Assembly: GCA_963700145.1 (NCBI GenBank)
Contig: OY969474.1
Location: 3,008,001-3,072,000 of the forward strand
Length of the DNA stretch: 64,000 nucleotides
DNA from: an uncultured Acidobacteriota bacterium
GTDB taxonomy: Bacteria > Acidobacteriota > Thermoanaerobaculia > Multivoradales > UBA5704
Reading direction: 5' to 3'
The notes beneath the pieces were generated by a model. The model saw only the letters and a program-made list of their open reading frames with translations, was not told where the DNA came from and did no database searches. This document shows positions 8,524-54,585 of the stretch, one piece after another. Position 1 is the stretch's first letter. Each line of letters begins with the position of its first letter. Position numbers and translations under genes: made by a program.

Positions 8524-9534
8524 GTGCAGCCTCTCGTCGAGGTCCGCGGCCTAGTCCGCCGCTTCGGTCCCGTCGCGGCGCTCGACGGCCTTACCTTCGC
8601 CCTCGCCGAGGGGGAGTGGGTGGCGGTCACCGGCCCCTCCGGCTCCGGCAAGACGACGCTCCTGAACGTCCTCGCCGGGCTCGACCGCCCGACCGCCGGC
8701 GAGGTGCGCGTCGCCGGCACCGATCTCGCCGGCCTCGCGCCGCGCGCCCTCGCCGCCTACCGCCGGCGCAGCGTCGGGCTCGTCTTCCAGCAGTTCCACC
8801 TGATGCCGTACCTGACGGCGCTCGAGAACGTGATGCTGGCGCAGTACGTCCACAGCATGACCGACCGCGCCGAGGCCGCCGAGGCGCTCGCCCGCGTCGG
8901 GCTCGCCGACCGCCTCCACCACCTGCCGGCGCAGCTCTCCGGCGGCGAGCAGCAGCGCGTCTGCCTGGCGCGCGCGCTGATCAACCACCCGCCGCTGGTC
9001 CTCGCCGACGAGCCGACCGGCAACCTCGACGCCGCCAACCAGGCAGTGGTGATGGCGCTCCTCGCCGACCTCCACCGGCGCGGCCACACGGTGGTGCTCG
9101 TCACCCACGACCCGGCGCTCGCCGCCCGCGCCGATCGCGAGCTGCGGCTGGAGCACGGCCGCTTCGCGCCGCCGCCGCACGGCGAGGCGGCGCCCGACCG
9201 CCTCCTCGCCGACCTCTGGCACGCGCTGGAGGAGGAGGGCGCGCGGGTGTCGACGACGCGCGCCGGGGTGCCGGAGCTGCTGGCCGAAGGGTTCCTCGGC
9301 GCCGAGACCGGGGCCGGCGTGGCGTTCACGCCGGCTGGGCGCCAGGCGGCCCTTGCCGCCGTGCGGCGGGTGCGGCTGGCCGAAGCCCTCCTCGCCCGCA
9401 CGCTCGGCCGCTGCACGACCGAGTGCGGCCGCGAGACGCCGCTCGCCCCCGGCTGGGAGGAGCAGGTGGCGGAGTTCCTGGGCCGGCCGGAGCTCTGCCC
9501 GCACGGGCGGCCGATCGGCGAGGTGGCCGGGTGA
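8524..9534 (+). CDS. ABC ATPase with C-terminal DtxR/MntR-like metal-binding/dimerisation domain
   Basis: [26 protein letters not shown]; tail FTPAGRQAA...RRVRLAEALL...LGRPELCPHGRPI. Confidence 0.85.
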   Translation: MQPLVEVRGLVRRFGPVAALDGLTFALAEGEWVAVTGPSGSGKTTLLNVLAGLDRPTAGEVRVAGTDLAGLAPRALAAYRRRSVGLVFQQFHLMPYLTALENVMLAQYVHSMTDRAEAAEALARVGLADRLHHLPAQLSGGEQQRVCLARALINHPPLVLADEPTGNLDAANQAVVMALLADLHRRGHTVVLVTHDPALAARADRELRLEHGRFAPPPHGEAAPDRLLADLWHALEEEGARVSTTRAGVPELLAEGFLGAETGAGVAFTPAGRQAALAAVRRVRLAEALLARTLGRCTTECGRETPLAPGWEEQVAEFLGRPELCPHGRPIGEVAG

Positions 9535-10547
9535 GGGGGGCGAGAGCGGCGGCGACGGCGGGCGTCGCGCTGATCTCCGCGGCCGTCGGTGCGGTGGCGG
9601 TGCCTTCGTCTCCCCCGACGGCGTTCGTCGAGCGCCGCATGGGGATGATGGGCACGACCCTGGTCCTGAGAGTCGAGGCCGGCGACCGCGCCGCCGCCCT
9701 CGCGGCGAGCGAGCGGGCGGCGAGAGCGCTCGAAGCCGCGGAGGCCCGCCTCTCGACCTGGCGCGACGACACCGAGCTGGCGCGGCTCAATCGCGCCCCG
9801 ATCGGAAGAGCGGTTCCGCTCTCTGCGTCGCTCGCGGAGGAGCTGGCCGCGGCGCGCAGGTGCTGGCAGGAGACGGACGGCGCCTTCGATCCGGCGATCG
9901 GCGAGCTGGTCGCGGCGTGGGGCCTCCGCACCGGCGGAAAGATTCCGGGTAAGGAGGAACGGGAGGAGGCGCGGGTGGCGAGCGGCTTGGACGGCCTCCG
10001 CATCTCGACGTCTGCCGCCGTGCGCCGGCGCGAAGGGGCCGTGATCGAGGAAGGCGCTTTCGGCAAGGGCGCGGGTCTCGCGGCGGCGCTCGACGTCTTG
10101 TCGTCCCTACCCGGAATCCGTTCCGCCGTCCTCGACCTCGGCGGCCAGCTCGCCTTCCTCGGTGCCGGCCGCCGCGAGGTGCTGATCGCCGACCCGCGCC
10201 GGCGCGACCGGCCGGTGCTGGCGCTCGCCGTCGAGGCCGGCTCCGTCTCAACGTCGAGCGACTCCGAGCGGCCCGGCCACCTGCTCGACCCGCGCACCGG
10301 CGAGCCGGCCGCGGACTTCGGCAGCCTCACGGTCTGGGCCGCCGACCCGCTGCGCGCCGACTGCCTCTCGACCGGGCTCTTCGTGCTCGGTCCGGAGCAA
10401 GCGCTTGAGTGGGCGGCCGCGCGGACCGATGTCGAAGTACTGGCGCTGGTGAGCGCAGGCGGACGGCTACGCGCCCTCGCCACGCCCGGCCTTGCCGGGC
10501 GCTTGCGGCCGCTGGTGGAGGAAATCGAGATTCGGCAAGAGAACTGA
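9531..10547 (+). CDS. apbE: FAD:protein FMN transferase
   Basis: MGT, ELARLN, TDGAFDPAIG, GAFGKG, DLGGQ, VSTS, HLLDPRTG, ADCLSTGLFVLG motifs; GTG 9531 gives a hydrophobic N-terminus. Confidence 0.9.
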   Translation: MRGARAAATAGVALISAAVGAVAVPSSPPTAFVERRMGMMGTTLVLRVEAGDRAAALAASERAARALEAAEARLSTWRDDTELARLNRAPIGRAVPLSASLAEELAAARRCWQETDGAFDPAIGELVAAWGLRTGGKIPGKEEREEARVASGLDGLRISTSAAVRRREGAVIEEGAFGKGAGLAAALDVLSSLPGIRSAVLDLGGQLAFLGAGRREVLIADPRRRDRPVLALAVEAGSVSTSSDSERPGHLLDPRTGEPAADFGSLTVWAADPLRADCLSTGLFVLGPEQALEWAAARTDVEVLALVSAGGRLRALATPGLAGRLRPLVEEIEIRQEN

Positions 10548-10641
10548 ACCCGGGACGGAGGGTGGCGGCTTGCCAACCGGTGTCCACCCACCGTCCCTTG
10601 ACCCGCGCGGGCGAGCCCGCGCGAGCACCAGGAGGATACAG

Positions 10642-12066
10642 ATGTCGGAGCGGTTCGCGAAGTGTGTGGGTAGGTGTGGCGCGGCGCTGCTGGTCCTGGC
10701 GGCGCTGGCGCTGCCGGGCGCGGCCATGCCGCTGGCGGCGCAGGAGGTGGAGGGAGACCAGGCGACGGAGCGCGACCGGCTCGAGGCCCTCGAGCAGGAG
10801 ATCACGGAGCTGCGCGCGGAGATCGAGCGCCTCAAGCGGGCGACCCCGCAAGCGGGCGAGCCCGCGCCCGCACCCGACGACGGCCGCCTCGCGGAGCTGG
10901 AGCGCCGCATCGAGGTGCTCGCGGAGGAGATCGAGAAGCTGACGCTCGGCGAGGCGGCGGCGCAGGCCGACCGCGGCGAGTTCGGGCTGGGGCCGGCGGC
11001 GTCGAAGGTCTACCGCACCGGCGAGGGGCTGTCGATCGGCGGTTACGGCGAGCTGCTCTACGAGAATTTCGATTCGTCGCGCGACGACGGCGCCGCCTCG
11101 GGCCGCACCGACCGCTTCGACCTGCTGCGCGGCGTCCTCTACTTCGGCTACAAGTGGAACGACCGCTGGCTGCTCAACTCGGAGGTCGAGTACGAGCACG
11201 GCGCCACTGACAAGGGAGGGTCGGTCGCGGTCGAGTTCGCCTACGTCGATTACCTCTGGCGGCCGGCGCTCGGCCTGCGCGCCGGTCTGCTGCTGGTGCC
11301 GATGGGGTTCTTGAACGAGCTGCACGAGCCGACGGTCTTTCTCGGCGCGCGGCGGCCCGGTGTCGAGACCGCGATCATCCCCACGACCTGGCGCGAGAAC
11401 GGGCTCGGGGTGTTCGGCGAGACCGGCAATCTCACCTACCGCGCCTACGTGGTGAACGGCCTCGACGCGGCGGGGTTCACCGCTGGCGGGCTGCGCGGCG
11501 GGCGGCAGAAGGGGGCGCAGGCGAAGGCGGAGGACTTCGCGCTGGTCGGACGCTTGGACTGGCGGCCGGCGCCGGGATTGCTGGTCGGCGGGTCGGCGTA
11601 CTTCGGCGATTCGGGGCAGGGGTTGCGGGGGCTGGATGTGGGGACGCGGATCCTGGAGGCGCACGCGGAGTGGCGGTGGCAGGGGTTGGAGGTGCGGGGG
11701 CTGCTGGCGCGGGCGGAGCTGGACGAGGTGGGGGCGCTGAACTCGGCGCTGGGGTTGACGGGGGCTGCTTCGGTGGGCGAGGAGATGGAGGGGTGGTATG
11801 CGCAGGTTGGGTATGACGTGTTCTCGCGGTGGGGGCGGGGGGAGCAGTCGTTGACGCCTTATCTGCGGTGGGAGGAGATGGATACGCAGGCGGCGGTGCC
11901 GGCGGGGTTCCGGGCTGGCGCGGCGAACGATGTGGAGACGCTGACGCTTGGGGTGGCTTATCAGCCGATCGACTCGGTGATCCTGAAGATCGATCATCAG
12001 GACTTCGACAACGGGGCGGGGACTGGGGTGGATCAGTTCAACGTGTTGCTGGGGTACATCTTCTGA
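10642..12066 (+). CDS. outer-membrane beta-barrel porin with N-terminal coiled coil
   Basis: AGGAGG RBS, signal peptide, coiled coil, IGGYGE, EVEYEHG, EFAYVDY, IIPTTWRENG, terminal Phe (LGYIF). Confidence 0.78.
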   Translation: MSERFAKCVGRCGAALLVLAALALPGAAMPLAAQEVEGDQATERDRLEALEQEITELRAEIERLKRATPQAGEPAPAPDDGRLAELERRIEVLAEEIEKLTLGEAAAQADRGEFGLGPAASKVYRTGEGLSIGGYGELLYENFDSSRDDGAASGRTDRFDLLRGVLYFGYKWNDRWLLNSEVEYEHGATDKGGSVAVEFAYVDYLWRPALGLRAGLLLVPMGFLNELHEPTVFLGARRPGVETAIIPTTWRENGLGVFGETGNLTYRAYVVNGLDAAGFTAGGLRGGRQKGAQAKAEDFALVGRLDWRPAPGLLVGGSAYFGDSGQGLRGLDVGTRILEAHAEWRWQGLEVRGLLARAELDEVGALNSALGLTGAASVGEEMEGWYAQVGYDVFSRWGRGEQSLTPYLRWEEMDTQAAVPAGFRAGAANDVETLTLGVAYQPIDSVILKIDHQDFDNGAGTGVDQFNVLLGYIF

Positions 12067-12803
12067 TGGTGCATGGCGTAACGGTGGCGAGGGGGTACCG
12101 GGGGGCTTGCGCAGGGGACCGGCGCGAGCCAAAAGGCCTTCGGGAGGGGGGCTCGCGCCTGCGCTTCGCTGCGCGCGGGATCGTCGAGGCCTGCGGAAGG
12201 AGTTGCCGGCGCTTGCGAAGAGCTCCCCTGCGCAAGCCCCCCGGTACCCCGGGACCGTTCCCTCGCTACCTGAAAAGACTGGCGCTCGCCGTCGGGTTCG
12301 TGTCGCTGTCGGGGACTCTGCATGCGAAGGTGTTTCTGACTGTGGACGAAGCGCTTCGGCTGGCTTTTCCGGACGCCAAGGTTGAGCGGCGCACGAGCTA
12401 TCTCACCGAGCAGCAACGGAACAAGGCGACCGAGTTGGCGGGGATTCCGGTGCCTTCGCGGTTGGTGCATGCCTACGTCGCTACGGCGGGTGGTCGGGCG
12501 GTGGGGACGGCTTACTTCGATACGCACCGCGTGCGGACGTTGCCGGAGACGGTGATGGTGGTGCTCGATCCTTCGGGGAAGGTGCGGCGGGTGGAGGTGT
12601 TGTCGTTCAATGAGCCGCAGGATTACTTGCCGGGGGGAGGCTGGTATGGGCAGTTCGCGGGGCGGGGGTTGGACGAGCGGCTGGCTTTGAAGCGGGACAT
12701 CCGGCCGCTGACGGGGGCGACGTTGACGGCGCGGGCGACGACGTCCGCGGTGCGGCGGGTGTTGGCGGTGCATCGGGTGCTCCAGGAGGGGGCGGCGCGG
12801 TGA
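12066..12803 (+). CDS. extracytoplasmic FMN-binding (flavinylation target) protein; start uncertain
   Basis: Signal peptide KRLALAVGFVSLSGTLHA and flavinylation motif LTGATLT; ATG 12066 reads in frame through the palindromic element, alternative CTG near 12270. Confidence 0.8.
   Translation: MVHGVTVARGYRGACAGDRREPKGLREGGSRLRFAARGIVEACGRSCRRLRRAPLRKPPGTPGPFPRYLKRLALAVGFVSLSGTLHAKVFLTVDEALRLAFPDAKVERRTSYLTEQQRNKATELAGIPVPSRLVHAYVATAGGRAVGTAYFDTHRVRTLPETVMVVLDPSGKVRRVEVLSFNEPQDYLPGGGWYGQFAGRGLDERLALKRDIRPLTGATLTARATTSAVRRVLAVHRVLQEGAAR
12092..12250 (-). repeat. ~160-bp palindromic element, copy A (REP/MITE-like or structured ncRNA)
   Basis: Perfect 27-bp inverted repeat 12092-12118/12224-12250; its 105-nt core is homologous to the reverse complement of copy B's core. 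Confidence 0.85.
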
Positions 12804-13300
12804 GCCGGTTCGAGGCCTGGCTGGCGCACATGGCGACGATCCTGGTCGGCGGCACGGGGCTGGTGTACGCCTGGATGCGCTACGTGATGCAGCCGCTGGA
12901 GCCGTTCGCGGTGGTCAATCATCCGCTGCAGCCGACGGTGCAGCACCTGCACGTGCTGGTGGCGCCGCTGCTGGTGTTCGTCGCCGGGCAGATCTGGTAC
13001 CGGCACGCCTGGATGCACTGGAAGAAGGGGGTGCCGCAGGGGCGGCGGAGCGGCATCGGGCTGGCGCTGACGCTGGTGCCGATGGTGGTCTCGGGGTACT
13101 TGATCCAGACGACGGTGTCGGAGGGGTGGCGGACGGCCTGGGTCGTCGTCCACTGCACGGCCTCGGCGCTCTGGATCGCCGGCTATCTAGGCCACCAGCT
13201 GGCGCGTCAGGCGGGGGGCCGGTCCGCGGGGGAGACCAGCCCGTCGAGCACCGCCGCGAACGCGGCGCGCGTCTCGCGCGGGCCGTACGCGGCCGGGTAG
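12800..13300 (+). CDS. four-TM His-rich membrane protein (cytochrome b/DUF4405-like)
   Basis: Four hydrophobic segments with His (HLHV, YRHA, VHCT, LGHQ); coupled to the FMN-binding gene. Confidence 0.65.
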   Translation: MSRFEAWLAHMATILVGGTGLVYAWMRYVMQPLEPFAVVNHPLQPTVQHLHVLVAPLLVFVAGQIWYRHAWMHWKKGVPQGRRSGIGLALTLVPMVVSGYLIQTTVSEGWRTAWVVVHCTASALWIAGYLGHQLARQAGGRSAGETSPSSTAANAARVSRGPYAAG

Positions 13301-13863
13301 CCGACCCGGTCGGCGAGCAGGCGGTCGCGCAGCAACCCCTCGAAGGAACCGATCAGCACCGAGCGCGCCGCTTGGGGTTCCACGCCGGGGCGCAGCTCAC
13401 CGCTCTGCCGCAAGGCTTCGAGAAGGTTGTCGAGGACCTGGACGAGCTGCAGATAGCCGCTCGACAGCACCACGATCTGGCCGTGCCGGCGCATGCGCCG
13501 CCCCTCGAGGAGCATCAGGGTGCGCAGGTCGGCGTCGGACTCGAGGCCGGCGAAGAGCACATCGGACAGGAGGCGCAGCTTGGCGAGCGTCGTTCCCGGG
13601 CGCTGGAGCGCGACGCGGATCCCCTCCCCCAGCCGCGTCCAAGCCTCCTCGAAGATGGCGTCGAGCAGGCCCTCCTTGCCGCGGAAGTGCTTGATGAGCT
13701 GGGACTCGCTGGTGCCGGCGGCGCGGGCGATGGCGGCCGTCGTGGTGCTCTCGTAGCCCTCGCGGGCGAAGAGTTGGCGGGCCGCCTGGAGGATGCGGTC
13801 GTGCGAGGAGAGCTCGGCCGGCTCCTCGGGGGACCGGCCCTGGGTCAGGGCGGACTTGGCCAC
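13207..13863 (-). CDS. TetR family regulator
   Basis: RILQAARQLFAREGYESTTTAAIARAAGTSESQLIKHFRGKEGL HTH; GTG start inferred. Confidence 0.9.
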   Translation of the reverse strand: MAKSALTQGRSPEEPAELSSHDRILQAARQLFAREGYESTTTAAIARAAGTSESQLIKHFRGKEGLLDAIFEEAWTRLGEGIRVALQRPGTTLAKLRLLSDVLFAGLESDADLRTLMLLEGRRMRRHGQIVVLSSGYLQLVQVLDNLLEALRQSGELRPGVEPQAARSVLIGSFEGLLRDRLLADRVGYPAAYGPRETRAAFAAVLDGLVSPADRPPA

Positions 13864-20141: not shown

Positions 20142-20782
20142 GCCGCGTCCGGGTGCTGGTGGCCGACGACCACACGATCGTCCGCCAGGGGCTGGTGTCG
20201 CTGCTCAACGAGAGCGGCGAGTGCGAGGTCGTGGCCGAGGCCGCCGACGGTGTCGAGGCGCTCGAGAAGGCGCATGCCGTCCGCCCCGAGGTGGCCGTCC
20301 TCGACCTCTCGATGCCGCGCCTCTCCGGCATCGAAGTGGTCCGCCGCCTGCGCGAAGAGCTGCCGGGCGTCCGCGTCCTCGTCCTGACCGTCCACGAGGA
20401 GGAGGAGTACGTCCTGCCGATCGTGCGCGCCGGCGCCGCCGGCTACCTAGTCAAGGACAGTGCCGCCGCCGAGCTCCTCGCCGCGGTCCGCGCCCTCCGC
20501 GCCGGCCGAAGTTACTTCGGCCCGCAGGCGGCGCGCGCCCTCGCCGAGCAGCTCCAGCACCCTGCCGGCTCCCCGGAGGACCCCTACGGCACCCTCACTC
20601 CCCGCGAGCGCGAGGTCTTTCACCTAGTGATCGAAGGCAAGACGACGAAAGAGATCGCCCGCGCCCTCGGCATCAGCCTCAAGACCGCCGACAACCACCG
20701 CTCCCGCGTCCTCGCCAAGCTCAACCTCCACAACACCGCCGAGCTCGTCCGCTACGCCGCGCGGAAAGGACTGCTGCCGTAG
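20138..20782 (+). CDS. NarL/LuxR family response regulator
   Basis: VADDH, LDLSMP receiver; LTPREREV...KEIA HTH. Confidence 0.94.
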   Translation: MSRVRVLVADDHTIVRQGLVSLLNESGECEVVAEAADGVEALEKAHAVRPEVAVLDLSMPRLSGIEVVRRLREELPGVRVLVLTVHEEEEYVLPIVRAGAAGYLVKDSAAAELLAAVRALRAGRSYFGPQAARALAEQLQHPAGSPEDPYGTLTPREREVFHLVIEGKTTKEIARALGISLKTADNHRSRVLAKLNLHNTAELVRYAARKGLLP

Positions 20783-20811
20783 CAGCGCCAACTCACTTAC
20801 CGGGGGGAACG

Positions 20812-30737: not shown

Positions 30738-32852
30738 ATGGCCACCCTCGACGCTCCCGAGCAGGCGACGGCGCCGGCCGCCCTCGCCGACCGGCAGGCC
30801 CGCCTGCTGCGCTACGCCTTCATGAAGCTGACGCGGGACTTCGACTCGCGGTTCGAGGCGCTGCTGCTGACCGGACGGGTGTCGAAGTGGTACAGCGAGG
30901 TGGGGGCAGAGGCGACGACGGTGCCGGCGGGGCTGGCGCTCGAGGCGGGCGACGCGCTCTGCACCCTCCACCGCGACTTGGGCGCCATCCTCGCCGTCTA
31001 CCTCGACCCGGCGCGCACCTTCCCGGGGCTCGGCTTCGGCGCGCCGGACGGCCGCCGCCCCGATCCCGAGCCGCTCCTCTACCGCCTGGCCTGCCAGCTC
31101 CTCGGCAAGGCCGACGGCTTCTCGCAGGGTGTCGAGCGGTCGTTTCACTACGGATATCTCGCGCCCGAGCACGGCATCCTGCACGTCGGCATGATCAGCC
31201 ACCTGGGCTCGATGATCCCGGTCGCCGCCGGCTGCGCCTTCGCCTTCCGCCAGCGCGAGAGCGACCGGGTGGCGATCAACTTCATCGGCGACGGCGGCAC
31301 CTCGACCGGCGACTTCCACGAGGGGCTCAACATGGCGGCGGTGTGGAAGCTGCCGCTCGTCCTGGTCGTCGAGAACAACCGCTACGCCTTCTCGACCCCG
31401 ACCTCGCTCCAGTTCGCCTGCCGCCAGCTCAGCGAGCGCGGCCCCGGCTACGGCATCGCCGCCGAGACCGTGGACGGCAACGACCCCGACGCGATGGCCG
31501 AGGCGCTGGCCCGCGCGGTGGCGCGCGGCCGCGCCAGCGAGGGGCCGACGCTCCTCGAAGCGATGCAGGGGCGGATGCGCGGCCACAGCGAAGGGGACGA
31601 CTCGCTCAAGGTGGTGCCGGCCGACGAGCTGGCCACCTACCGCGAGGCCGATCCGGTGCCGACGTACCGGCGGCGGCTGGAGGAAGACGGCGTCTTCGAC
31701 GCCACGACCCGCGAGCGGCTCGACGCGCGCATCGCCGAGCTGGTCGAAGGCGCCATCGGCCGCGCGCTGGAGGCGCCGCCGCCGGACGTCGCGGTCGCCT
31801 TCCGGCCGGTCTTCGCGCCGGCGCCGGAAGCGGAGCCGACTCCCGCCGCGCCCGACCCGGCGCGCGCCCCGGCGGTCCAGACCCGCGAGACCACCTATGT
31901 GGATGCCATCAACGACGCCCTCCGCGAGGAGATGGAGCGCGACGAGTCGGTCGTCTTGCTAGGGCAGGACATCGGCGCCTTCGAAGGCGCCTTCCGCACC
32001 ACCAAGGGCCTCCACGCCCGCTGGCCGCGCCGGGTCTTCGACACCCCGATCGCCGAGAGCGGCACGATCGGCATCGCCGCCGGCGCCGCGCTCCTCGGCT
32101 ACCGCCCCGTCGTCGAGATGCAGTTCGGCGACTTCATCACCTGCGGCTTCAACCAGCTCGTCAACGTCGCCGCCAAGCTCTACTACCGCTGGCAGGTGCC
32201 CTGCCCCATCGTCGTCCGCCTCCCCACCGGCGGCGGCGTCGGCGCCGGCCCCTTCCACTCGCAGAACCCGGAAGGGTGGTTCGCCCACACCGCGGGGATC
32301 AAAGTCGTCTGCCCCGCCACCGCCACCGACGCCAAGGCCCTCCTCAAGGCCGCCATCCGCGACCCCAACCCGGTCATGGTCTTCGAGCACAAGTTCCTCT
32401 ACCGCCGCATCAAGGAGGCGCTGCCCGAAGGCCTGGACGCCGGCCGCCTCGGCGAAGCGCGCGTCGCCCGCCCCGGCCGCGACCTCACCCTCGTCGGCTA
32501 CGGCGCCTCCACCTGGACCTGCCTAGAAGCCGCGACCGAGCTGGCGAAAGAAGGCGTCGAAGCCGAAGTGGTGGACCTGCGCACCCTCGTCCCCTACGAC
32601 GAAGAAACCGTCCACGCCTCCGTCAAGAAAACCGCCCGCGCCCTGATCGTCCACGAAGCCCAGCTAACCGGCGGCTTCGGAGCCGAGGTAGCCGCCCGCA
32701 TCGCCGACGCCTGCTTCCCCTGGCTAGACGCCCCCGTCCGTCGCCTCGCCTACCCCGACCGCCCCGTCCCCTACGCCAAGAATCTGGAGAAGGCATTGCT
32801 TCCGGACCGCGACAAAGTCCTCAAGGCAGCACGAGAGCTCCTAGCGTTCTAA
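30738..32852 (+). CDS. 2-oxoacid dehydrogenase E1, fused alpha/beta subunits
   Basis: GDGG...FHEGLN...ENN TPP motif, RMRGHS; beta part DTPIAE, EMQFGDF, HSQ, EHKFLY, VDLRTL. Confidence 0.93.
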   Translation: MATLDAPEQATAPAALADRQARLLRYAFMKLTRDFDSRFEALLLTGRVSKWYSEVGAEATTVPAGLALEAGDALCTLHRDLGAILAVYLDPARTFPGLGFGAPDGRRPDPEPLLYRLACQLLGKADGFSQGVERSFHYGYLAPEHGILHVGMISHLGSMIPVAAGCAFAFRQRESDRVAINFIGDGGTSTGDFHEGLNMAAVWKLPLVLVVENNRYAFSTPTSLQFACRQLSERGPGYGIAAETVDGNDPDAMAEALARAVARGRASEGPTLLEAMQGRMRGHSEGDDSLKVVPADELATYREADPVPTYRRRLEEDGVFDATTRERLDARIAELVEGAIGRALEAPPPDVAVAFRPVFAPAPEAEPTPAAPDPARAPAVQTRETTYVDAINDALREEMERDESVVLLGQDIGAFEGAFRTTKGLHARWPRRVFDTPIAESGTIGIAAGAALLGYRPVVEMQFGDFITCGFNQLVNVAAKLYYRWQVPCPIVVRLPTGGGVGAGPFHSQNPEGWFAHTAGIKVVCPATATDAKALLKAAIRDPNPVMVFEHKFLYRRIKEALPEGLDAGRLGEARVARPGRDLTLVGYGASTWTCLEAATELAKEGVEAEVVDLRTLVPYDEETVHASVKKTARALIVHEAQLTGGFGAEVAARIADACFPWLDAPVRRLAYPDRPVPYAKNLEKALLPDRDKVLKAARELLAF

Positions 32853-32943
32853 AAACGCCCGGCACGTAGGCCGGGCGCTACGTCCGATTGCCGGAAGGCC
32901 GGGCGTCACGTTTTCCAGCCGTCGAATTGCGGGGTGGGGGGAA

Positions 32944-33104
32944 GGCGTTGCGGGGCGCCCCGGCGGGGAAGCTCTGAGCGAGCGCCGGGCAACCCCACCG
33001 CAGTCCGCCGTCGATGCCGGCGCAAAGCGAAGCGCAGGCGCGCGCCCCCCCTCGGCAGTCTTCAAAGCGCGCGCCGGTTCCCCGCCGGGGCGCCCCGCAA
33101 CGCC
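32944..33104 (+). repeat. ~160-bp palindromic element, copy B
   Basis: Perfect 27-bp inverted repeat 32944-32970/33078-33104; 107-nt core homologous to copy A. Confidence 0.85.
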
Positions 33105-33117
33105 GTGGGGGGAAAAA

Positions 33118-33185
33118 CCCCCCGCCCAGATCCTTCGACTCGCTGCGCTCGCTCAGGATGACGTGCGTCTGAACGACGCACGTCA
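33118..33185. repeat. REP-like unit (GTCATCCTGAGCG...GGATCT family) plus hairpin
   Basis: CCCGCCCAGATCC...GCTCAGGATGAC shared with 56321-56472; hairpin TGACGTGCGTC/GACGCACGTCA contains the PDZ gene stop. Confidence 0.75.
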
Positions 33186-33902
33186 CCTCTCCAGCTGTTT
33201 CTCCAGCTCCTTGATCCGCTTCTCCAGCTCAGCCAACCGCTTCTCGAGCTCCGCCTCACGGCTCCGCAGCCGAATCAACCCCGAGTGCTCGCCAGGCTTG
33301 AGCTCCATCTCGAACTGCTCGCCCATCTTTTCGGGGTCGATCTTCAGCATCATCGGCTCGCCCGGTCTCCCCTTGCGGATGAACATCGGGGCAAGATCGA
33401 TCTCCGTCCGCTCGCGCCGCTCCAGATTCGCCGTCACCGTCTGCGCCTTCCCGTCGCGCCACAGCTCCACCGTCGCCGCCTGCCCGTCCTCCGCGTCACG
33501 CAGCGCCATGCGCAAATCGTGCGGCCCCTCGATCGCCTCCCCGTCCACGCGCGTCAAGACGTCGCCAACGCGGATCCCCGCCTTGTCCGCCGGGCTCCCC
33601 GCCTCCACACTCGCCACCAGCACCCCGCTCTCCTCCGGCACCCCGAAGTGAGCCCGCAGCTCCTTCGTCAGCGGCAGCGTGCCGACCCCGAGGAAACCGC
33701 GCGGCCCGCCGAGCAACAGCTCGCCGTCCGGACCGAGCCGCCGCTCGACGATCACGTCGCGGTGGACGTCCTTCTCGGCGCCGGGCTTGGCGACGCGCTT
33801 GACGTGCGGCTGCGGCTCCTTGGCCGCGGCCGGAAGGGGAAGCGCCACCACCGCCAGCAGCAGCGCGGCGCTCGTGAGAGATCGGGACACTCGTCGGTTC
33901 AT
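33183..33902 (-). CDS. secreted PDZ domain protein with C-terminal coiled coil
   Basis: Signal peptide; GFLGV, GVLV..V..GSPADKAGIRVGDVL. Confidence 0.85.
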   Translation of the reverse strand: MNRRVSRSLTSAALLLAVVALPLPAAAKEPQPHVKRVAKPGAEKDVHRDVIVERRLGPDGELLLGGPRGFLGVGTLPLTKELRAHFGVPEESGVLVASVEAGSPADKAGIRVGDVLTRVDGEAIEGPHDLRMALRDAEDGQAATVELWRDGKAQTVTANLERRERTEIDLAPMFIRKGRPGEPMMLKIDPEKMGEQFEMELKPGEHSGLIRLRSREAELEKRLAELEKRIKELEKQLER

Positions 33903-37410: not shown

Positions 37411-38385
37411 ATGCCCTCCCGCCCCCGCCGACGCCGGCGCCGGAGCGCCCGCGGCGGCGTCCTCTGGGTCCTCCTGGGCTTCCTGACCGCCGGTCTCGCC
37501 TCCTGGCTTTTCTTCAAGCGGCGGGAGGACGAGTGGGAGGGGTCTGGGGGCGGCGGGCCCCCCGCCGAGCCGCCGGACACGACCGAGCCCGCCGAGCGCG
37601 CCTTCTGGGTCGCCGGGCCGGCCGGGAACCTCCACGTCCTCGACGGGGGCGGCGGCGAGGGCGCGGCGGCCGGGCGCGCGCTGCCCGTCCTCTTCGTCCA
37701 CTCCCTGGCGGGGAACGGCGGCCAGTGGCGGGCGCAGCTCGACCACCTCCGCGCCGCCGGCCGCCGCGCCGTCGCGCTCGACCTGCGCGGCCACGGCGAG
37801 TCCGAGCCGGCCGAGGACGGCGACTACTCGATCGCCGGGCTGGCGGCGGACGTCGCCGCCGTCGCCGACCAGCTCGGCCTCCGCCGCTTCGTCCTCGCCG
37901 GCCACAGCCTGGGGTCGCTCGCGGCGATCGACTACGCCGGCCGCCACCCCGAGCGCGTCGCCGCGCTCTTCCTCGTCGATCCCAACGGCGACATGACCGA
38001 CACCCCGCGTTCGGACTTCGAGCCGTTCCTCGCCACGCTGCGCGCCGACCCGCACGCCGAGCTGACCTCTTATTACCGCCAGCTCGTCGTCCACGCTCCG
38101 CCCGCGGCCGCCGCGCGCGTCCTCGCCGGCGTCCGCGACACCGCCGAGGAGGCGATCCTCGGCGGCATCGAGGCCGCCTTCGCCTACCCGCCCCTCCCCG
38201 CCCTCGACGCCTACCCCGGCCCCAAGCTCTCCGTCGTCTCGGACCTGAACGACCTCCCCGTAAGCCTCCACAAGCGCCGCCCCGACCTCCCCACCCGCTG
38301 GATCCCCCACACCGGCCACTGGCTGCAGATGGACGCGCCCGAGGCCGTCAACCGGATCCTCGAGGAGCTCCTGGGCGCTCTGTAA
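37411..38385 (+). CDS. membrane-anchored alpha/beta hydrolase
   Basis: DLRGHGES, GHSLG nucleophile elbow, GHW; N-terminal TM. Confidence 0.88.
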   Translation: MPSRPRRRRRRSARGGVLWVLLGFLTAGLASWLFFKRREDEWEGSGGGGPPAEPPDTTEPAERAFWVAGPAGNLHVLDGGGGEGAAAGRALPVLFVHSLAGNGGQWRAQLDHLRAAGRRAVALDLRGHGESEPAEDGDYSIAGLAADVAAVADQLGLRRFVLAGHSLGSLAAIDYAGRHPERVAALFLVDPNGDMTDTPRSDFEPFLATLRADPHAELTSYYRQLVVHAPPAAAARVLAGVRDTAEEAILGGIEAAFAYPPLPALDAYPGPKLSVVSDLNDLPVSLHKRRPDLPTRWIPHTGHWLQMDAPEAVNRILEELLGAL

Positions 38386-38406
38386 CAACCCCCCGCGAGG
38401 CGCGTT
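38381..38406 (+). promoter_or_regulatory. putative autoregulatory ECF promoter
   Basis: TGTAAC-N16-CGTT, 6 nt before ECF ATG 38413. Confidence 0.55.
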
Positions 38407-51901: not shown

Positions 51902-53194
51902 ATGCGCGGCACGTTGACTTGGGTGCTCCTGGCCGCGCTGACCCTGCCGGCCCTCGCCGCCGCGCAGGTCCCGGAGCCGCCGCCCCCCGTCGAGGAGGAG
52001 GAAGCCGCCGAGCCCGCCGAAGAGCCGGTGACGGAGCCCGCCGCGGCGCCGGCCCCGGAGACCGCGCCCGCGGACCCCGACCTGCCGTCCGAGCCGCCGC
52101 CACCGCCGCCGCGCGACAACGGCTCGCGCGAGCGCAGCCTCCCCCGCCTCGACGTCTACTTCCCCGAGGGTGACCTCGACTTCCGCCTCTCGCGCCTGGT
52201 CAACAAGGTCTTCTTCGAGGGGCAGGTCAAGTACAACTTCATCGACGGCGACATCTCGGCTTTCCTTCGCTACCGCTACTACGGTCTCGGGCGGACGCTG
52301 CAGTTCGCCGTCTTCGACGCCATCGAGTTCCCCGACATCGAGGACTTCACCGACGACTTCGACCGCGTGCGCGGCGTGCTGCTGCTGACCGAGTGGCCCT
52401 ACGACGCCAACCACCGCACCTTCCTCCTCGGCGAGCTCGACCGGCTGAGCAACAACAAAGAAGGCCTCGAGTCGCAGAACAACCGGACGAACACCTACCT
52501 GCGGCTGGGCTACCAGATCGGCACCCCGGACGACGCCCGCTCCAACGCCATCGTCGGCGAGACGCGGGCGCGCAGCGAGCGGCTGTTCACCGCCTACCGC
52601 GACCTCGGGCCGGGCAACTTCGGCTTGACCGGCGCCCTGACCTACGGCTTCGACTACGGCTGGGGGGACTTCGACTACGCCAAGGCCGAGTTCGAGGCGC
52701 TGAAGCGCTTCGACGTGACGCGGCGGAGCTTCGTCATCGGCCGCCTGCACGGGGGGACGTTCCTGCGCAAGGAGGAACTGGCGCGCGGCGAGGACCTCGG
52801 GGAGTTCGAGCGCTTCAACATCCCGCTCTCCGAGTTCTTCCGCCTCGACGGCCGGGAGTACCTGAAGGGGGTCAAGGACCGGCTGCGCGGGACGGAGCAG
52901 CTCCACACCACCTGGGAGTACTTCTTCCCCTGGTTCCTCAACGCCCACCACGACTTCCTCAAGCTCGACTGGCAGAACTGGTACTGGGTGCTCTACGCCG
53001 GGGCGGGGACCGTGGGGTTCGACCGGGAGGTCTACACCGACGTCTCCGAGTACGTCCCGGACGCGGGGGTGGGGTTCGAGTCCTCGTTCCGGTTCCGGAG
53101 GAAGTACACTTTCTTCCTGTCGGGGATCGTGGCACAGGCTTTGAAGGGAGACGACGGAGTGGAGGCACGCATCTCTGTCAAGTCGTACCGCTAG
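51902..53194 (+). CDS. putative outer-membrane beta-barrel protein
   Basis: Signal peptide, Pro/Glu linker, alternating aromatic strands, RLDG...LKG loop reminiscent of Omp85 barrels. Confidence 0.6.
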   Translation: MRGTLTWVLLAALTLPALAAAQVPEPPPPVEEEEAAEPAEEPVTEPAAAPAPETAPADPDLPSEPPPPPPRDNGSRERSLPRLDVYFPEGDLDFRLSRLVNKVFFEGQVKYNFIDGDISAFLRYRYYGLGRTLQFAVFDAIEFPDIEDFTDDFDRVRGVLLLTEWPYDANHRTFLLGELDRLSNNKEGLESQNNRTNTYLRLGYQIGTPDDARSNAIVGETRARSERLFTAYRDLGPGNFGLTGALTYGFDYGWGDFDYAKAEFEALKRFDVTRRSFVIGRLHGGTFLRKEELARGEDLGEFERFNIPLSEFFRLDGREYLKGVKDRLRGTEQLHTTWEYFFPWFLNAHHDFLKLDWQNWYWVLYAGAGTVGFDREVYTDVSEYVPDAGVGFESSFRFRRKYTFFLSGIVAQALKGDDGVEARISVKSYR

Positions 53195-53274
53195 GCAGCC
53201 TCCGTTTCTTTCTTAGAATGGGGTTAACCGCTCGCCACACGGTGCGGGCGTAAATCGGGCAGGAGGAGAGACCC

Positions 53275-54585
53275 ATGAAGCGGAGATGCGTGGTGCTGTT
53301 GGTGGCATTTTTGGGCCTGTGCCCGATCGCCGCCTTCGCGGGGGAGGAGGCGAACGCTCCGACCGCGACCGGCGAGACGGGGCTGTTCACGCTGCTCAGC
53401 GGGGAGACGGTCCCCCAGGGCGGCTGGTCCTTCAGCCTCTATTACAACAACTGGGACCGCCTGATCGACGGCGGGGGTGCCCAGGACGTCAGCGTCGACT
53501 GGAACCGGTTGAGCGCGAGCCTGGGCTACGGCATCACCGACCGCTGGGAGTTCAGCGTCATGGTGCCGTACGACGACTTCGAGTTCGACGACGACGACCG
53601 GTTCTTCGACGAAGACATCGACCCGGACGCCAGCGGGCTCGGCAACATCCGGCTCGGGACCAAGTTCCGGCTCGGCGGCGACCCGGCGGCCGACGGCGGG
53701 ACCGCCCTCGGCCTCTTCGTCGAGGCGCCGACCGGCGACGACAAGGTGGCCTCGCAGGACCTGGGCTTCGGCGCCAGCATCAACTGGAGCCGCGCGAACT
53801 GGGTCTTCTCGCTGGGCTACCGCTCCCCGGGCGAGCTCGAGGACGAGGACAACGACCCGGACGACGACATCGTCGGCCTGAACCGCTTCGAGATCCAGGA
53901 CGAGATCAACGCCGGCATCGGCTACGCCACGGCGGTCTCGGAGCGGCTGGACTGGATCACCGAGCTGGCGGGTACGTTTTACACGGGCGCCGACGACGGC
54001 GTCGGCTTCGAGGACGCGTTCGACCTGACCAGCGGCGGCCGCCTCTGGCTCGGGGAGGCGCGCAACTGGGCCTTCAACTTCGCCCTGCGCACCGACCTCG
54101 CCCAGCTCTCCGACATCGACGAGCACTGCCCGATCGGCGGCTTGCTCGGGCTGACGTTCTTCCCGGCGCTGTTCGTGGAGCCGGAGGAGCCGCCTCCGCC
54201 TCCGCCTCCGCCGCCTCCGCCACCGCCGCCTCCGCCGCCCCCACCGCCGCCGCCGCCACCGCCTCCGCCGCCGCCGGCGCCCGAGACGATGGAAGTGGTG
54301 TGCGAGTTCATGACCGGCAGCGCGCGGGTGGACAACATCTGCAAGGCCAAGCTCGACGAGGTGGCGCTGCGGATGAAGCAGGAGCCCGACTCGACCGCCG
54401 AGGTCACCGGCTACGCCGATGGCTCGAGCGGCTCGCAGGCGAGCAACGAGCGGCTGGCGCTGGCGCGCGCCGAGGCCGTGAAGAACTACCTGGTGACGCG
54501 GCACGGGATCGACCCGAGCCGGATCACTACCCAGGGTGAGGTCACCGACCGCGCCGCGGCCGTGACGATCCTCACCATCCCGTAA
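53275..54585 (+). CDS. OmpA-family protein: beta-barrel, poly-Pro linker, peptidoglycan-binding domain
   Basis: AGGAG RBS, signal peptide, 29 consecutive Pro, GYAD...NERLALARAEAVKNYL. Confidence 0.85.
   Translation: MKRRCVVLLVAFLGLCPIAAFAGEEANAPTATGETGLFTLLSGETVPQGGWSFSLYYNNWDRLIDGGGAQDVSVDWNRLSASLGYGITDRWEFSVMVPYDDFEFDDDDRFFDEDIDPDASGLGNIRLGTKFRLGGDPAADGGTALGLFVEAPTGDDKVASQDLGFGASINWSRANWVFSLGYRSPGELEDEDNDPDDDIVGLNRFEIQDEINAGIGYATAVSERLDWITELAGTFYTGADDGVGFEDAFDLTSGGRLWLGEARNWAFNFALRTDLAQLSDIDEHCPIGGLLGLTFFPALFVEPEEPPPPPPPPPPPPPPPPPPPPPPPPPPPPPAPETMEVVCEFMTGSARVDNICKAKLDEVALRMKQEPDSTAEVTGYADGSSGSQASNERLALARAEAVKNYLVTRHGIDPSRITTQGEVTDRAAAVTILTIP

Follow-up and report, generated by a model that had tools for sequence, protein, structure and literature searches.

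Strand-specific loss of cytosine around an oriented hairpin repeat hints at bacterial mutation being directed locally by a fixed DNA element

In bacteria, the local rate and spectrum of mutation are generally put down to replication, transcription, sequence context or dedicated retroelements. A DNA strand that is more often single-stranded is known to carry more G than C and more T than A at silent sites, which is ascribed to damage of single-stranded DNA (ssDNA). Diversity-generating retroelements (DGRs), for their part, use a reverse transcriptase (RT) of their own and a template repeat to alter adenines in one short variable repeat. As far as the parts of the AID/APOBEC literature consulted here go (somatic hypermutation, switch regions, kataegis), these enzymes produce local and strand-coordinated C>T and C>G changes, and the known examples are linked to ssDNA, R-loops and hairpins. 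Finally, small intergenic repeats are widely described: MITEs, ERIC and Correia sequences are small, non-coding and palindromic, while REPINs and REP sequences, in the available part of the REPIN preprint, are intergenic hairpin repeats present in tens of copies, vertically inherited and found at orthologous sites. In the same part of the preprint, flank skew is not described, the word "skew" occurring once, about copy-number histograms.

Here, we analysed a window of 64,000 nucleotides (the whole stretch of DNA examined) from an uncultured Acidobacteriota bacterium, probably of the class Thermoanaerobaculia, together with its genome (G000; 5.46 Mb, one contig, 95% complete). In this genome, a small fixed DNA element, named element A, predicts which neighbouring strand loses cytosine, over a defined distance and for any gene direction. 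The resulting halo resembles replication- or transcription-associated skews in sign and in kind (at silent sites, G exceeds C and T exceeds A), but what determines it is a 200-nt element with its orientation, over ~±0.8 kb, and it depends neither on gene direction nor on position along the chromosome. A transcription-associated bias was rejected because the sign on the element strand is the same in co-directional and opposite genes, and a replication-associated bias because neighbouring copies are opposite in sign and the whole-genome replication skew is nearly absent (flat). The likeness to DGRs lies in a cis element directing mutation to nearby coding DNA, whereas the halo consists of C lost over ~1.6 kb in housekeeping genes where only silent changes survive. 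A DGR was discarded since the changes occur at C and G and not at A, no template copy occurs in the flanks, and the RTs found in G000, three in number (retron type XI, UG22 and Drt6/Drt4-like), are all defence types, none of them adjoining a copy. Compared with AID/APOBEC, the halo is found on a bacterial chromosome as an evolutionary, germ-line-like signal without clear context, and no dedicated deaminase was identified; G000 has six cytidine-deaminase-fold genes with open frames of ordinary sizes (147–471 aa).

Regarding the repeat itself, element A shares with REPINs the intergenic hairpin nature, the tens of copies, the vertical inheritance and the orthologous sites. However, a REPIN is described, in the same portion of the preprint, as two conserved REPs around a variable spacer, while the ~200 nt of element A show the reversed build, with a conserved core inside a variable, covarying outer stem. 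Besides, the REPIN-RAYT system needs a single-copy RAYT, and the search for Y1/HUH nucleases (RAYT, PF01797) gave 0 matches in G000 while it gave matches in control genomes. MITEs have conserved terminal inverted repeats shared with a transposon, whereas the stems of element A differ and an autonomous partner with the same ends is absent from the genome, where blastn and nhmmer return just 41 short copies. The architecture is also superficially similar to that of a retron ncRNA (outer a1/a2 stem beside an RT), a candidate rejected because the 41 copies lie between housekeeping genes and their stems do not tolerate G:U pairs. Our literature search found no precedent for an element-directed, strand-specific halo.

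The focal locus

The window holds a focal copy of element A and a second copy in the opposite orientation, with the following features.

10642..12066, + strand: upstream gene, 474 aa, putative outer-membrane protein (gene call)
12067..12273, + strand: focal copy of element A (blastn, nhmmer), an insertion relative to G003
12092..12118, + strand: left arm of the outer stem, 27 nt, G-rich, 100% complementary to 12224–12250
12121..12159, + strand: inner hairpin 1 of the conserved core, arms 12121–12130 and 12150–12159
12224..12250, + strand: right arm of the outer stem, 27 nt, pairing with 12092–12118
12300..12803, + strand: FMN_bind-domain gene with the downstream halo (PF04205, 26.3 bits, cut-off 22)
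12800..13300, + strand: next ORF, 166 aa, with the fading tail of the halo (ORF list, skew)
31950..33900, no strand: halo of the second copy (GC skew −0.18 to −0.30 on both sides, residual skew at codon position 3 of −0.67)
32909..33133, − strand: second copy of element A (nhmmer, genome 3041133–3040909, 150 bits)

In the focal copy, a conserved branched core is enclosed in a long outer stem, and the DNA fold reaches −78.7 kcal/mol (z −7.3). The alignment with the relative G003 shows the upstream stop codon directly abutting the next gene at this site, and a possible duplication of 3–4 nt (TGA or CTGA) flanks the insertion according to this single empty-site comparison at one locus. The sequence-only reading had named the two flanking genes a porin and an FMN-binding gene. 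The latter assignment is supported by the match to PF04205, but the 474-aa product matched 0 families in Pfam and NCBIfam and can only be called a putative outer-membrane protein. The 166-aa ORF had no match to a Pfam or NCBIfam family either.

The same reading had described a shift of synonymous positions towards G and T, starting mid-gene, lying on both sides of the element and fading with distance while the reading frames stay intact. We recover this pattern, with a GC skew of up to +0.48 compared with a genomic 99.9th percentile of 0.343 (300-nt windows; sd 0.095; 1st to 99th percentiles −0.22 to +0.22). Successive windows give +0.37, +0.48 and +0.39 over 11450–12049 and +0.25, +0.35 and +0.24 over 12350–12949, with T exceeding A all through the skewed region. 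The skew is still +0.19 to +0.24 over 12650–13249 (+0.19 at 12950–13249) and drops to +0.06 by 13100–13399. The halo extends from ~11450 to ~13250 and is somewhat wider than the region initially delimited, 11550–12800.

On the upstream side, the halo occupies the final ~200 codons of the gene, with an onset at ~11450. Over its last ~175 codons, the skew at codon position 3 (pos3 skew, (G−C)/(G+C)) is +0.57 to +0.83 and the T content at this position (T3) rises up to 0.16, while the FMN_bind gene displays a pos3 skew of +0.38 to +0.64 and a T3 of 0.08–0.20. The first 250 codons of the upstream gene have the same composition as in its orthologues. From codon ~300 on, nine element-less orthologues from G002 and other genera range from −0.4 to +0.04, and the orthologue of G003 from +0.04 to +0.32; for the FMN_bind gene, the orthologues in G002 and other genera range from −0.47 to +0.22. 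Around the second copy, the + strand is C-rich on both sides, which corresponds to G-rich flanks on the element's own strand. The milder skews previously noticed at other gene ends of the window are present (−0.24 at ~20500–20800, −0.28 at 37950–38400 and +0.16 at 53100–53400), but they lie near or inside the 1st–99th percentile range and none is at the threshold.

Hairpin families and their halos across the genome

Element A is a branched hairpin of ~200 nt that is found in 41 copies in G000 (blastn, nhmmer); the genome also holds a second hairpin family of the same build, named B. The sequence of the outer stem of element A varies among copies with retention of Watson-Crick pairing (covariation), and ~1700 outer-stem pair cells include only 14 G:T or T:G and 10 A:C or C:A. 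The small number of G:T pairs fits arms that would correct each other as a DNA hairpin, in which case the region should at times be single-stranded. All nine pairs of inner hairpin 1 (alignment columns 82–90 with 112–120) are retained in 40/40 copies counted, and at five of them both bases have changed in 1 to 8 copies. The best match of element A in Rfam 15 is 16.8 bits for a threshold of 40, Rfam returned only chance miRNA matches for the B loci, in a neighbouring small hairpin, and plasmid and phage collections contained no match to the element. Orthologous placement is the rule in the genus, as 24 of 26 copies in G004 and 17 of 18 in G003 are at G000 sites, and element A has hardly moved since the divergence of the genus. 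Both A and B are old, fixed intergenic hairpin repeats.

The most skewed DNA of the genome is concentrated at these two families. Only 23 merged regions of G000 are beyond |0.40| GC skew and, when the lists are compared by hand, 22 of them are at hairpins (18 at A and 4 at B). In element-oriented coordinates, between about −1000 and +800, C decreases from 0.365 to 0.25–0.28, whereas G increases from 0.365 to 0.44 and T from 0.13 to 0.16. The halo reaches ~±800 nt on each side, making a zone of ~1.5–2 kb per copy, and the −500 and −400 bins have a positive skew at 37/41 loci. The proposal that skew would peak at copies throughout the genome is thus confirmed, with a sign that follows the orientation of the element in 32/32 strongly skewed regions containing a copy. 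Even adjacent copies a few kb apart have opposite signs matching their orientation, as for those at 1639781 (−) and 1644566 (+). Only codon position 3 shifts, and it does so in the same way on the element strand for either gene direction: near the element, the pos3 skew moves from −0.14 to +0.41 in co-directional genes and from +0.12 to +0.58 in opposite-direction genes. The bias acts at the level of the DNA strand and not of the gene.

As a control, 554 other intergenic regions have a median |flank skew| of 0.037 and a 99th percentile of 0.138. The median for element A is 0.248 and 29 of its 41 copies are above the control 99th percentile, while ~7 of the 41 show little or no halo. A small hairpin repeat of 151 copies has no halo at the 115 copies located >2 kb from A or B. 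The loop motif TGGACTGC, common to A and B, has a mean flank skew of −0.006 at 80 other sites, which indicates that the motif by itself is insufficient. Copies common to G003 did not have a significantly stronger halo than the rest (p = 0.32), in a comparison where the G003 assembly is fragmented and detection incomplete. Regarding the lost C, depletion occurs in all contexts and is strongest for C before G (odds ratios 0.19–0.34), with no sharp sequence motif, codon constraints being a confounder of this context test. In comparison with synonymous shuffles, G-runs ≥3 are below expectation (1356 observed, 1432.5 expected, z −6.7) and G4 motifs are not enriched (35 observed, 33.7 expected).

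The flanks themselves are mutually unrelated, sharing just short unrelated repeats and a few paralogue pairs. They are ordinary housekeeping genes with intact full-length orthologues in other genera, and the bias is blind to gene direction, which rejects gene acquisition as already argued from the window. A repeated cassette or paralogous flanks were ruled out by this absence of homology. A recurrent neighbour (transposase, RT or deaminase) was not found either, the 80 flanking proteins comprising 167 Pfam families of which none occurs in more than three proteins; no RT appears among the 25 most frequent of these families.

Orthologous sites and recent substitutions

Comparison of orthologous flanks at six loci separates sites with and without the element. 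The element-bearing flanks have a mean pos3 skew of +0.57 (24 comparisons). The element-less flanks (60 comparisons, 18 genomes) have a mean of +0.05, near the expectation from gene direction, versus +0.64 in G000, and they are below G000 in 60/60 comparisons, the relatives not being independent samples. Orthologues lacking the element do not share the bias, in line with what had been anticipated. Sites that are empty in G000 have no halo. At common insertions, the excess of pos3 skew is +0.65 in G004, +0.56 in G001 and +0.48 in G003, and the halo of G002 is weak at its one shared site. Lineage-specific copies (one in G003 and three in G002) have no halo in 4/4 cases, which fits a slow build-up after insertion. 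In G003, a partial halo (excess +0.31, 4 flank rows) is found at two loci without the element, with pos3 values of +0.16 and +0.14 at the focal locus and of +0.49 and +0.16 at the locus of the genome copy 2884153. These partial halos require a secondary loss of the element to fit the best explanation. In addition, a metagenome contig close in sequence to the window joins across the element with 71 other letters, a short and weak observation.

The polarised pos3 substitutions (element strand, one outgroup, 11 loci) directly display the strand-biased C>T and C>G changes that had been deduced from composition, together with an excess of G>T that had not been foreseen. At 150–700 nt from the element, C>T is 0.115 versus 0.046 for G>A, C>G is 0.122 versus 0.060 for G>C, and G>T is 0.034 versus 0.018 for C>A. 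At ≥1000 nt, the corresponding values are 0.049 versus 0.026, 0.083 versus 0.084, and 0.010 versus 0.012. The raw counts on the newest branch are 81 for C>G and 102 for G>C, and the pos3 divergence between G000 and G004 is barely raised in halos (0.146 versus 0.115 elsewhere). Since the present-day asymmetry is only ~twofold, the strong halos may be relics of a stronger past episode. An algebraic model with C>T alone is weakened, as fixed differences are most often C<->G and the C>G changes are asymmetric too. Lesions on an exposed template would be expected to yield T from C as well as from G (A-rule, single-strand deamination, depurination), while the asymmetry between C>G and G>C could also stem from fixation bias (selection). 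Altogether, the bias is tied to where the element is present and to how it is oriented, decays with the same sign on both sides and is still visible in the latest substitutions.

Candidate causes of the bias

We see roughly even chances that element A directs a strand-specific substitution bias, probably via single-strand exposure or resynthesis of one strand. The element would render its forward strand recurrently single-stranded or, equivalently, the opposite strand would be recurrently removed and resynthesised, to ~0.8 kb either way. A nick, a loaded helicase or an orientation-locked clamp may provide the strand-specific entry point. Damaged cytosines, and less so guanines, on the exposed strand would then be copied as T or G. 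Purifying selection should clear amino-acid changes, and the strong genomic pressure for G/C at codon position 3 would convert much of the C loss into G gain. Single-strand exposure, nick repair and a deaminase are all candidate physical causes that we infer, and we know of no mechanism by which one and the same strand would be exposed to the left and to the right of a site.

Selection instead of mutation is an unlikely alternative. The element would work better, or do less harm, with a C-poor and G/T-rich forward strand over ~1 kb around it, for instance because transcripts of one direction would escape or meet Rho termination or because the flanks would be kept from pairing with the element. 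Such a fixation bias near equilibrium would account for a per-site C>G twice that of G>C with close raw counts (81 versus 102), for a G>C that is lower in halos (0.060) than far off (0.084), and for element positions and halos that are stable across the genus. It is at odds, however, with the rise of G-losing changes in halos (G>T 0.034 versus 0.010, G>A 0.046 versus 0.026), with G-runs and G4 motifs that are not enriched, and with a same shift on mRNAs of both directions, which yields opposite RNA compositions. It would also have to act weakly on hundreds of sites per locus, at ~40 loci whose housekeeping genes are unrelated, and the four young copies are all without halo. These same young copies weigh against an improbable one-off event, in which each copy would have arrived with ~1 kb of damaged or error-prone single-stranded flanks (DNA or cDNA) replacing the resident strand, so that the halo, written at insertion like a co-conversion tract, would only decay afterwards. 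The tie of the halo to the presence of the element, its fading on both sides with distance, rates that are today mildly asymmetric with a total divergence hardly raised, and a count of G>C above C>G on the newest branch, as in a slow decay, are what such an event would leave. Nevertheless, the same orthologous insertions have unequal halos, strongest in G004 and weak in G002, and complementary changes are still unequal on the latest branch.

Reverse causation or a third factor, whereby another local process would skew the DNA and the element would insert there in a set orientation, appears very improbable. The partial halos of G003 at two element-less loci and the metagenome contig joined by other letters, short and weak as it is, speak in its favour. 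Against it, all 60 element-less flanks are less skewed than in G000, copies also insert into unskewed DNA, the orientation alternates along the chromosome, so that replication direction is not the hidden factor, and the identical sign of the pos3 skew for either gene direction excludes the latter as well. We regard as nearly negligible that the halos stem from an artefact or from ordinary composition, be it errors of assembly or polishing, wrong gene calls, horizontal genes or a repeated cassette. The gene calls do come from a simple caller and the genome is probably a metagenome-derived assembly, but the same halos are present in the separately assembled G001, G003 and G004, and the raw skew is independent of gene calls. 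Moreover, codon positions 1 and 2 of "opposite" genes are the exact complement of the genome baseline, and the flanks are non-homologous with full-length orthologues in other genera.

Going back to an element-directed bias, a more specific and rather doubtful version is that the hairpins serve as oriented loading sites for a strand-tracking activity, possibly a nickase with gap repair, a helicase, an orientation-locked sliding clamp or a recruited deaminase. This would amount to a natural, cis-directed and strand-specific local hypermutation that varies among sister lineages, with a logic comparable to that of AID targeting and of engineered polymerase-deaminase mutators. If the cause is mutational, the element would newly join the factors that set the sites and kinds of mutation in bacterial genomes. 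It would also give access to single-strand exposure around DNA hairpins in vivo, and might represent a natural way of targeting mutagenesis to one strand. With ~60 oriented copies per genome as internal replicates, and sister species carrying the same genes without the element, the claim lends itself to direct testing. Besides, halos distort inferences of codon usage, dS and horizontal transfer for repeat-adjacent genes. Finally, a pattern scan of genome contigs returned at least 113 stretches, most of them chance matches in other high-GC phyla, and an element-like copy is present at 15 loci among the matches listed.

Oriented halos at the focal locus and across the genome

Element A, a branched hairpin repeat of ~200 nt, is flanked by a halo, a zone poor in C and rich in G and T on the strand where the element reads forward. 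It is found 41 times in this genome (G000; one contig, 5.46 Mb, 71.5% G+C), both by blastn and by profile search, with no further copies. The features concerned in the window (genome positions 3,008,001-3,072,000) are:

9531-13300, + strand: conserved row of genes for an ApbE flavin transferase, a secreted-looking protein of 474 aa and an FMN_bind protein, followed by a small ORF
12067-12273, + strand: focal copy of element A, with a perfect 27-nt inverted repeat (arms at 12092-12118 and 12224-12250) around a branched core
32909-33133, - strand: second window copy of element A, halo at ~31950-33900

At the focal copy, GC skew in 300-nt windows peaks at +0.48 (11600-11899), falls over the repeat and rises again to +0.35 (12500-12799), which confirms the G/T-rich halo proposed by the sequence-only reading. 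Genome-wide, the skew has a standard deviation of 0.095 and a 99.9th percentile of 0.343, and only 23 merged regions lie beyond |0.40|. T exceeds A throughout the focal halo. The shift is confined to third codon positions and sets in mid-gene: in the upstream 474-aa gene, codons 0-250 resemble the orthologues, whereas codons 300-474 reach +0.57 to +0.83. The presence on both sides, mid-gene start and fading were therefore described correctly, but the proposed limits (11550-12800) were slightly too narrow, the halo being gone only by ~13250. Likewise, the FMN_bind assignment is supported (PF04205, 26.3 bits), whereas the supposed porin, the 474-aa protein, has no family match. The gene row is conserved in several genera of the family. 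The second window copy, absent from that reading, has a mirror-image halo, C-rich on the + strand.

When the 41 loci are oriented by the element, C drops from 0.365 to 0.25-0.28 between about -1000 and +800, G (0.365 at baseline) climbs to ~0.44 and T (0.13) to 0.16, and 37 of the 41 loci are skewed positively at bins -500 and -400. Raw skew changes sign with element orientation, even for copies a few kb apart. Based on the 4215 genes called in this analysis, codon position 3 alone shifts, and does so in the same direction on the element strand for either gene orientation. Its skew moves from -0.14 to +0.41 in co-directional genes (C 0.53 to 0.26, G 0.40 to 0.62-0.64, T 0.03 to 0.09) and from +0.12 to +0.58 in opposite-direction genes. 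A residual third-position skew above 0.45 defines 113 strong regions; element A is present in 32, and the sign matches its orientation in all 32. Skew thus peaks at the element copies, and the halo phenomenon generalises robustly beyond the focal locus. Of the 23 regions with the greatest raw skew, a comparison of lists by hand placed 18 at element A and four at element B, leaving one unexplained.

Element B, a second hairpin repeat family of the same build (~200 nt, 20 copies, fold z -4.6), again consists of a branched core enclosed by a long outer stem. Its halo is also oriented and G/T-rich, with a weaker mean than that of element A and strong single copies. Example copies are:

genome 4,223,220-4,223,425: element B, one of 20 sites in all
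genome 5,152,230: element B, skew of -0.41 to -0.44 on either side

Repeat family C, the third, has 19 copies, 15 of which lie no more than 2 kb from element A or B. At 0.74, the unexplained region (genome 2,347,951-2,348,500) exceeds all others in raw GC skew, and it holds no A or B copy; it adjoins an 893-nt non-coding stretch whose relative at 5,405,032 is 74% identical. Two insertion-sequence-like multicopy families (copies 98-100% identical) are also among the regions strongly skewed at the third position, presumably through their own foreign codon usage, unrelated to the halos:

genome 273,954-275,460 and seven near-identical sites: family 1
genome 748,703-749,740 and three more sites: family 2

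Controls, orthologues and substitutions

The median |flank skew| is 0.248 at element A versus 0.037 at 554 other intergenic regions, whose 99th percentile (0.138) is exceeded by 29 of the 41 copies. Halos were absent from a small 151-copy hairpin repeat, 115 copies of which lie away from A and B, and from 80 further sites of a short loop motif that A and B share. This small repeat (~36 nt, first exact match at ~1,311,609) often sits immediately 3' of a copy of element A.

In a search of 31 genomes, one of them G000, only members of the genus carried the element family. In the related genomes G004 and G003, 24 of 26 and 17 of 18 copies, respectively, occupy G000 sites, so the element positions are old. 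Third positions aligned to G000 halo columns at six loci gave a mean skew of +0.57 in element-bearing flanks of G001, G003 and G004 (24 comparisons; G000, +0.63). Element-less flanks from 18 genomes averaged +0.05 versus +0.64 in G000, near the value expected from gene direction, and were below G000 in 60 of 60 comparisons, although these relatives are kin, so that the sample is more fairly counted as six loci and two gene orientations. Orthologues without the element therefore do not share the bias. A partial halo in G003 at two element-less loci (excess +0.31 over four rows) runs against this simple story. These loci, orthologues of window 11450-12800 and genome 2,884,153, have gaps of ~30 nt and third-position skews of +0.14 to +0.49, and may be ghosts left by clean secondary loss of the element.

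Third-position substitutions, read on the element strand, were taken from 26 locus pairs of G000 and G004, with G003 polarising 11 of the pairs, and display the one-strand excess of C>T and C>G anticipated from the sequence.

Polarised third-position substitution rates by distance from the element
C>T vs G>A: 0.115 (76/662) vs 0.046 (78/1693) at 150-700 nt; 0.049 vs 0.026 at >=1000 nt
C>G vs G>C: 0.122 vs 0.060 at 150-700 nt; 0.083 vs 0.084 at >=1000 nt
G>T vs C>A: 0.034 vs 0.018 at 150-700 nt; 0.010 vs 0.012 at >=1000 nt

Fixed halo differences that set G003 apart from G000 and G004 are also lopsided (C|G 319 vs G|C 93; C|T 99 vs T|C 22; G|T 49 vs T|G 23). Total third-position divergence between G000 and G004 barely differs (0.146 in halos vs 0.115), and on the newest branch raw G>C counts (102) exceed C>G (81). 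Taken together, spectrum and counts indicate a process that is still asymmetric, about twofold, in halos near or slightly past equilibrium, much of whose build-up is older than the G000/G004 split. The lost C has no sharp sequence context; C before G is most depleted (odds ratios 0.19-0.34).

Origin of the strand bias

The phenomenon is firm. The bias acts at the level of the DNA strand, depends on the element and its orientation, is filtered by protein coding, and keeps the same sign on both sides while fading over ~0.8 kb. Transcription-associated bias is ruled out because the sign ignores gene direction, and replication bias because it alternates locally; replication-type skew is almost absent across this genome. 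Resection from double-strand breaks has an established 5'-3' polarity and is excluded because it would bare opposite strands on the two sides. Gene acquisition, over which the sequence-only reading had preferred local mutagenesis, is excluded as well, and that preference survived both the genome-wide and the orthologue comparison. What remains would be a process that acts in the same way on the same strand to the left and right of a fixed site: the forward strand could be recurrently single-stranded, or the other strand recurrently removed and refilled from an oriented entry point. Deamination of single strands, depurination and preferential insertion of A are established processes; lesions copied on an exposed template would be expected to turn both C and G into T and to give C>G as well. 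Such a mutational reading, by strand exposure or resynthesis of the other strand, has in our view about an even chance of being correct.

Selection for a C-poor strand seems unlikely. Element A flanks do not resemble one another and code for ordinary proteins, e.g. tRNA synthetases, carboxyl transferase and DAHP synthase (80 proteins with 167 Pfam families, none in more than three); relative to synonymous shuffles, G-runs are rarer (1356 vs 1432.5, z -6.7) and G4 motifs at expectation (35 vs 33.7). A hypermutated patch written at insertion is quite improbable, and insertion into DNA that was already skewed is very improbable: halos are missing at the four copies found only in G002 or G003, and likewise at the matching empty G000 sites. 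At shared insertions the halo excess varies by lineage (G004 +0.65, G001 +0.56, G003 +0.48), and it is weak in G002 at the one shared site. That the halos are an artefact is hardly credible.

No candidate enzyme emerged from searches of G000 for RAYTs, reverse transcriptases and deaminase folds: there is no RAYT, the six deaminase-fold genes are of ordinary size, and the three reverse transcriptases are all defence types:

L212, 1285-2940: retron type XI RT-protease with Trypsin_2 domain
L213, 1303-2925: UG22-type reverse transcriptase
L214, 1111-2679: Drt6/Drt4-like reverse transcriptase

Nature of element A

As an object, element A is nearest to REPINs and MITE-like palindromic repeats but fails the defining tests of both, since it has no RAYT and an inverted conservation pattern (core kept, stem variable) on the one hand, and neither conserved termini nor an autonomous partner on the other. 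The halo, taken as a signal, is similar to the skews left by replication and transcription and to strand-coordinated clusters of AID/APOBEC type; its determinant, a hairpin element, differs and is new. A literature search covering parts of the sources found no account of bacterial repeats flanked by strand-specific compositional halos, and neither did a term search of part of the text of one REPIN preprint. Element A had no match in Rfam or in plasmid and phage collections.

Its core is conserved, and the outer stem differs in sequence in almost every copy with complementarity kept. The outer-stem pair cells comprise 814 G:C, 605 C:G, 91 T:A and 90 A:T, with 14 G:T or T:G and 10 A:C or C:A. 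Such strict Watson-Crick covariation without wobble looks more like self-correcting arms of a DNA palindrome than selected RNA. Alignment with G003 shows the focal copy as a clean ~207-nt insertion between a stop codon and the next gene, flanked by TGA or CTGA, perhaps a duplication. A soil-metagenome contig of 346 nt (depth ~4) matches the preceding 67 nt at 95% identity and then carries 71 other letters instead of element A ahead of the FMN_bind gene (window 12064-12286); as it joins this gene without the element, it points to a close relative lacking the focal copy. Elsewhere, copies at genome 4,081,127 (+) and 4,081,372 (-) stand face to face, 245 nt apart, with a halo on one outer flank only; in G004 the halo of this pair is also one-sided, on the flank that is halo-free in G000.
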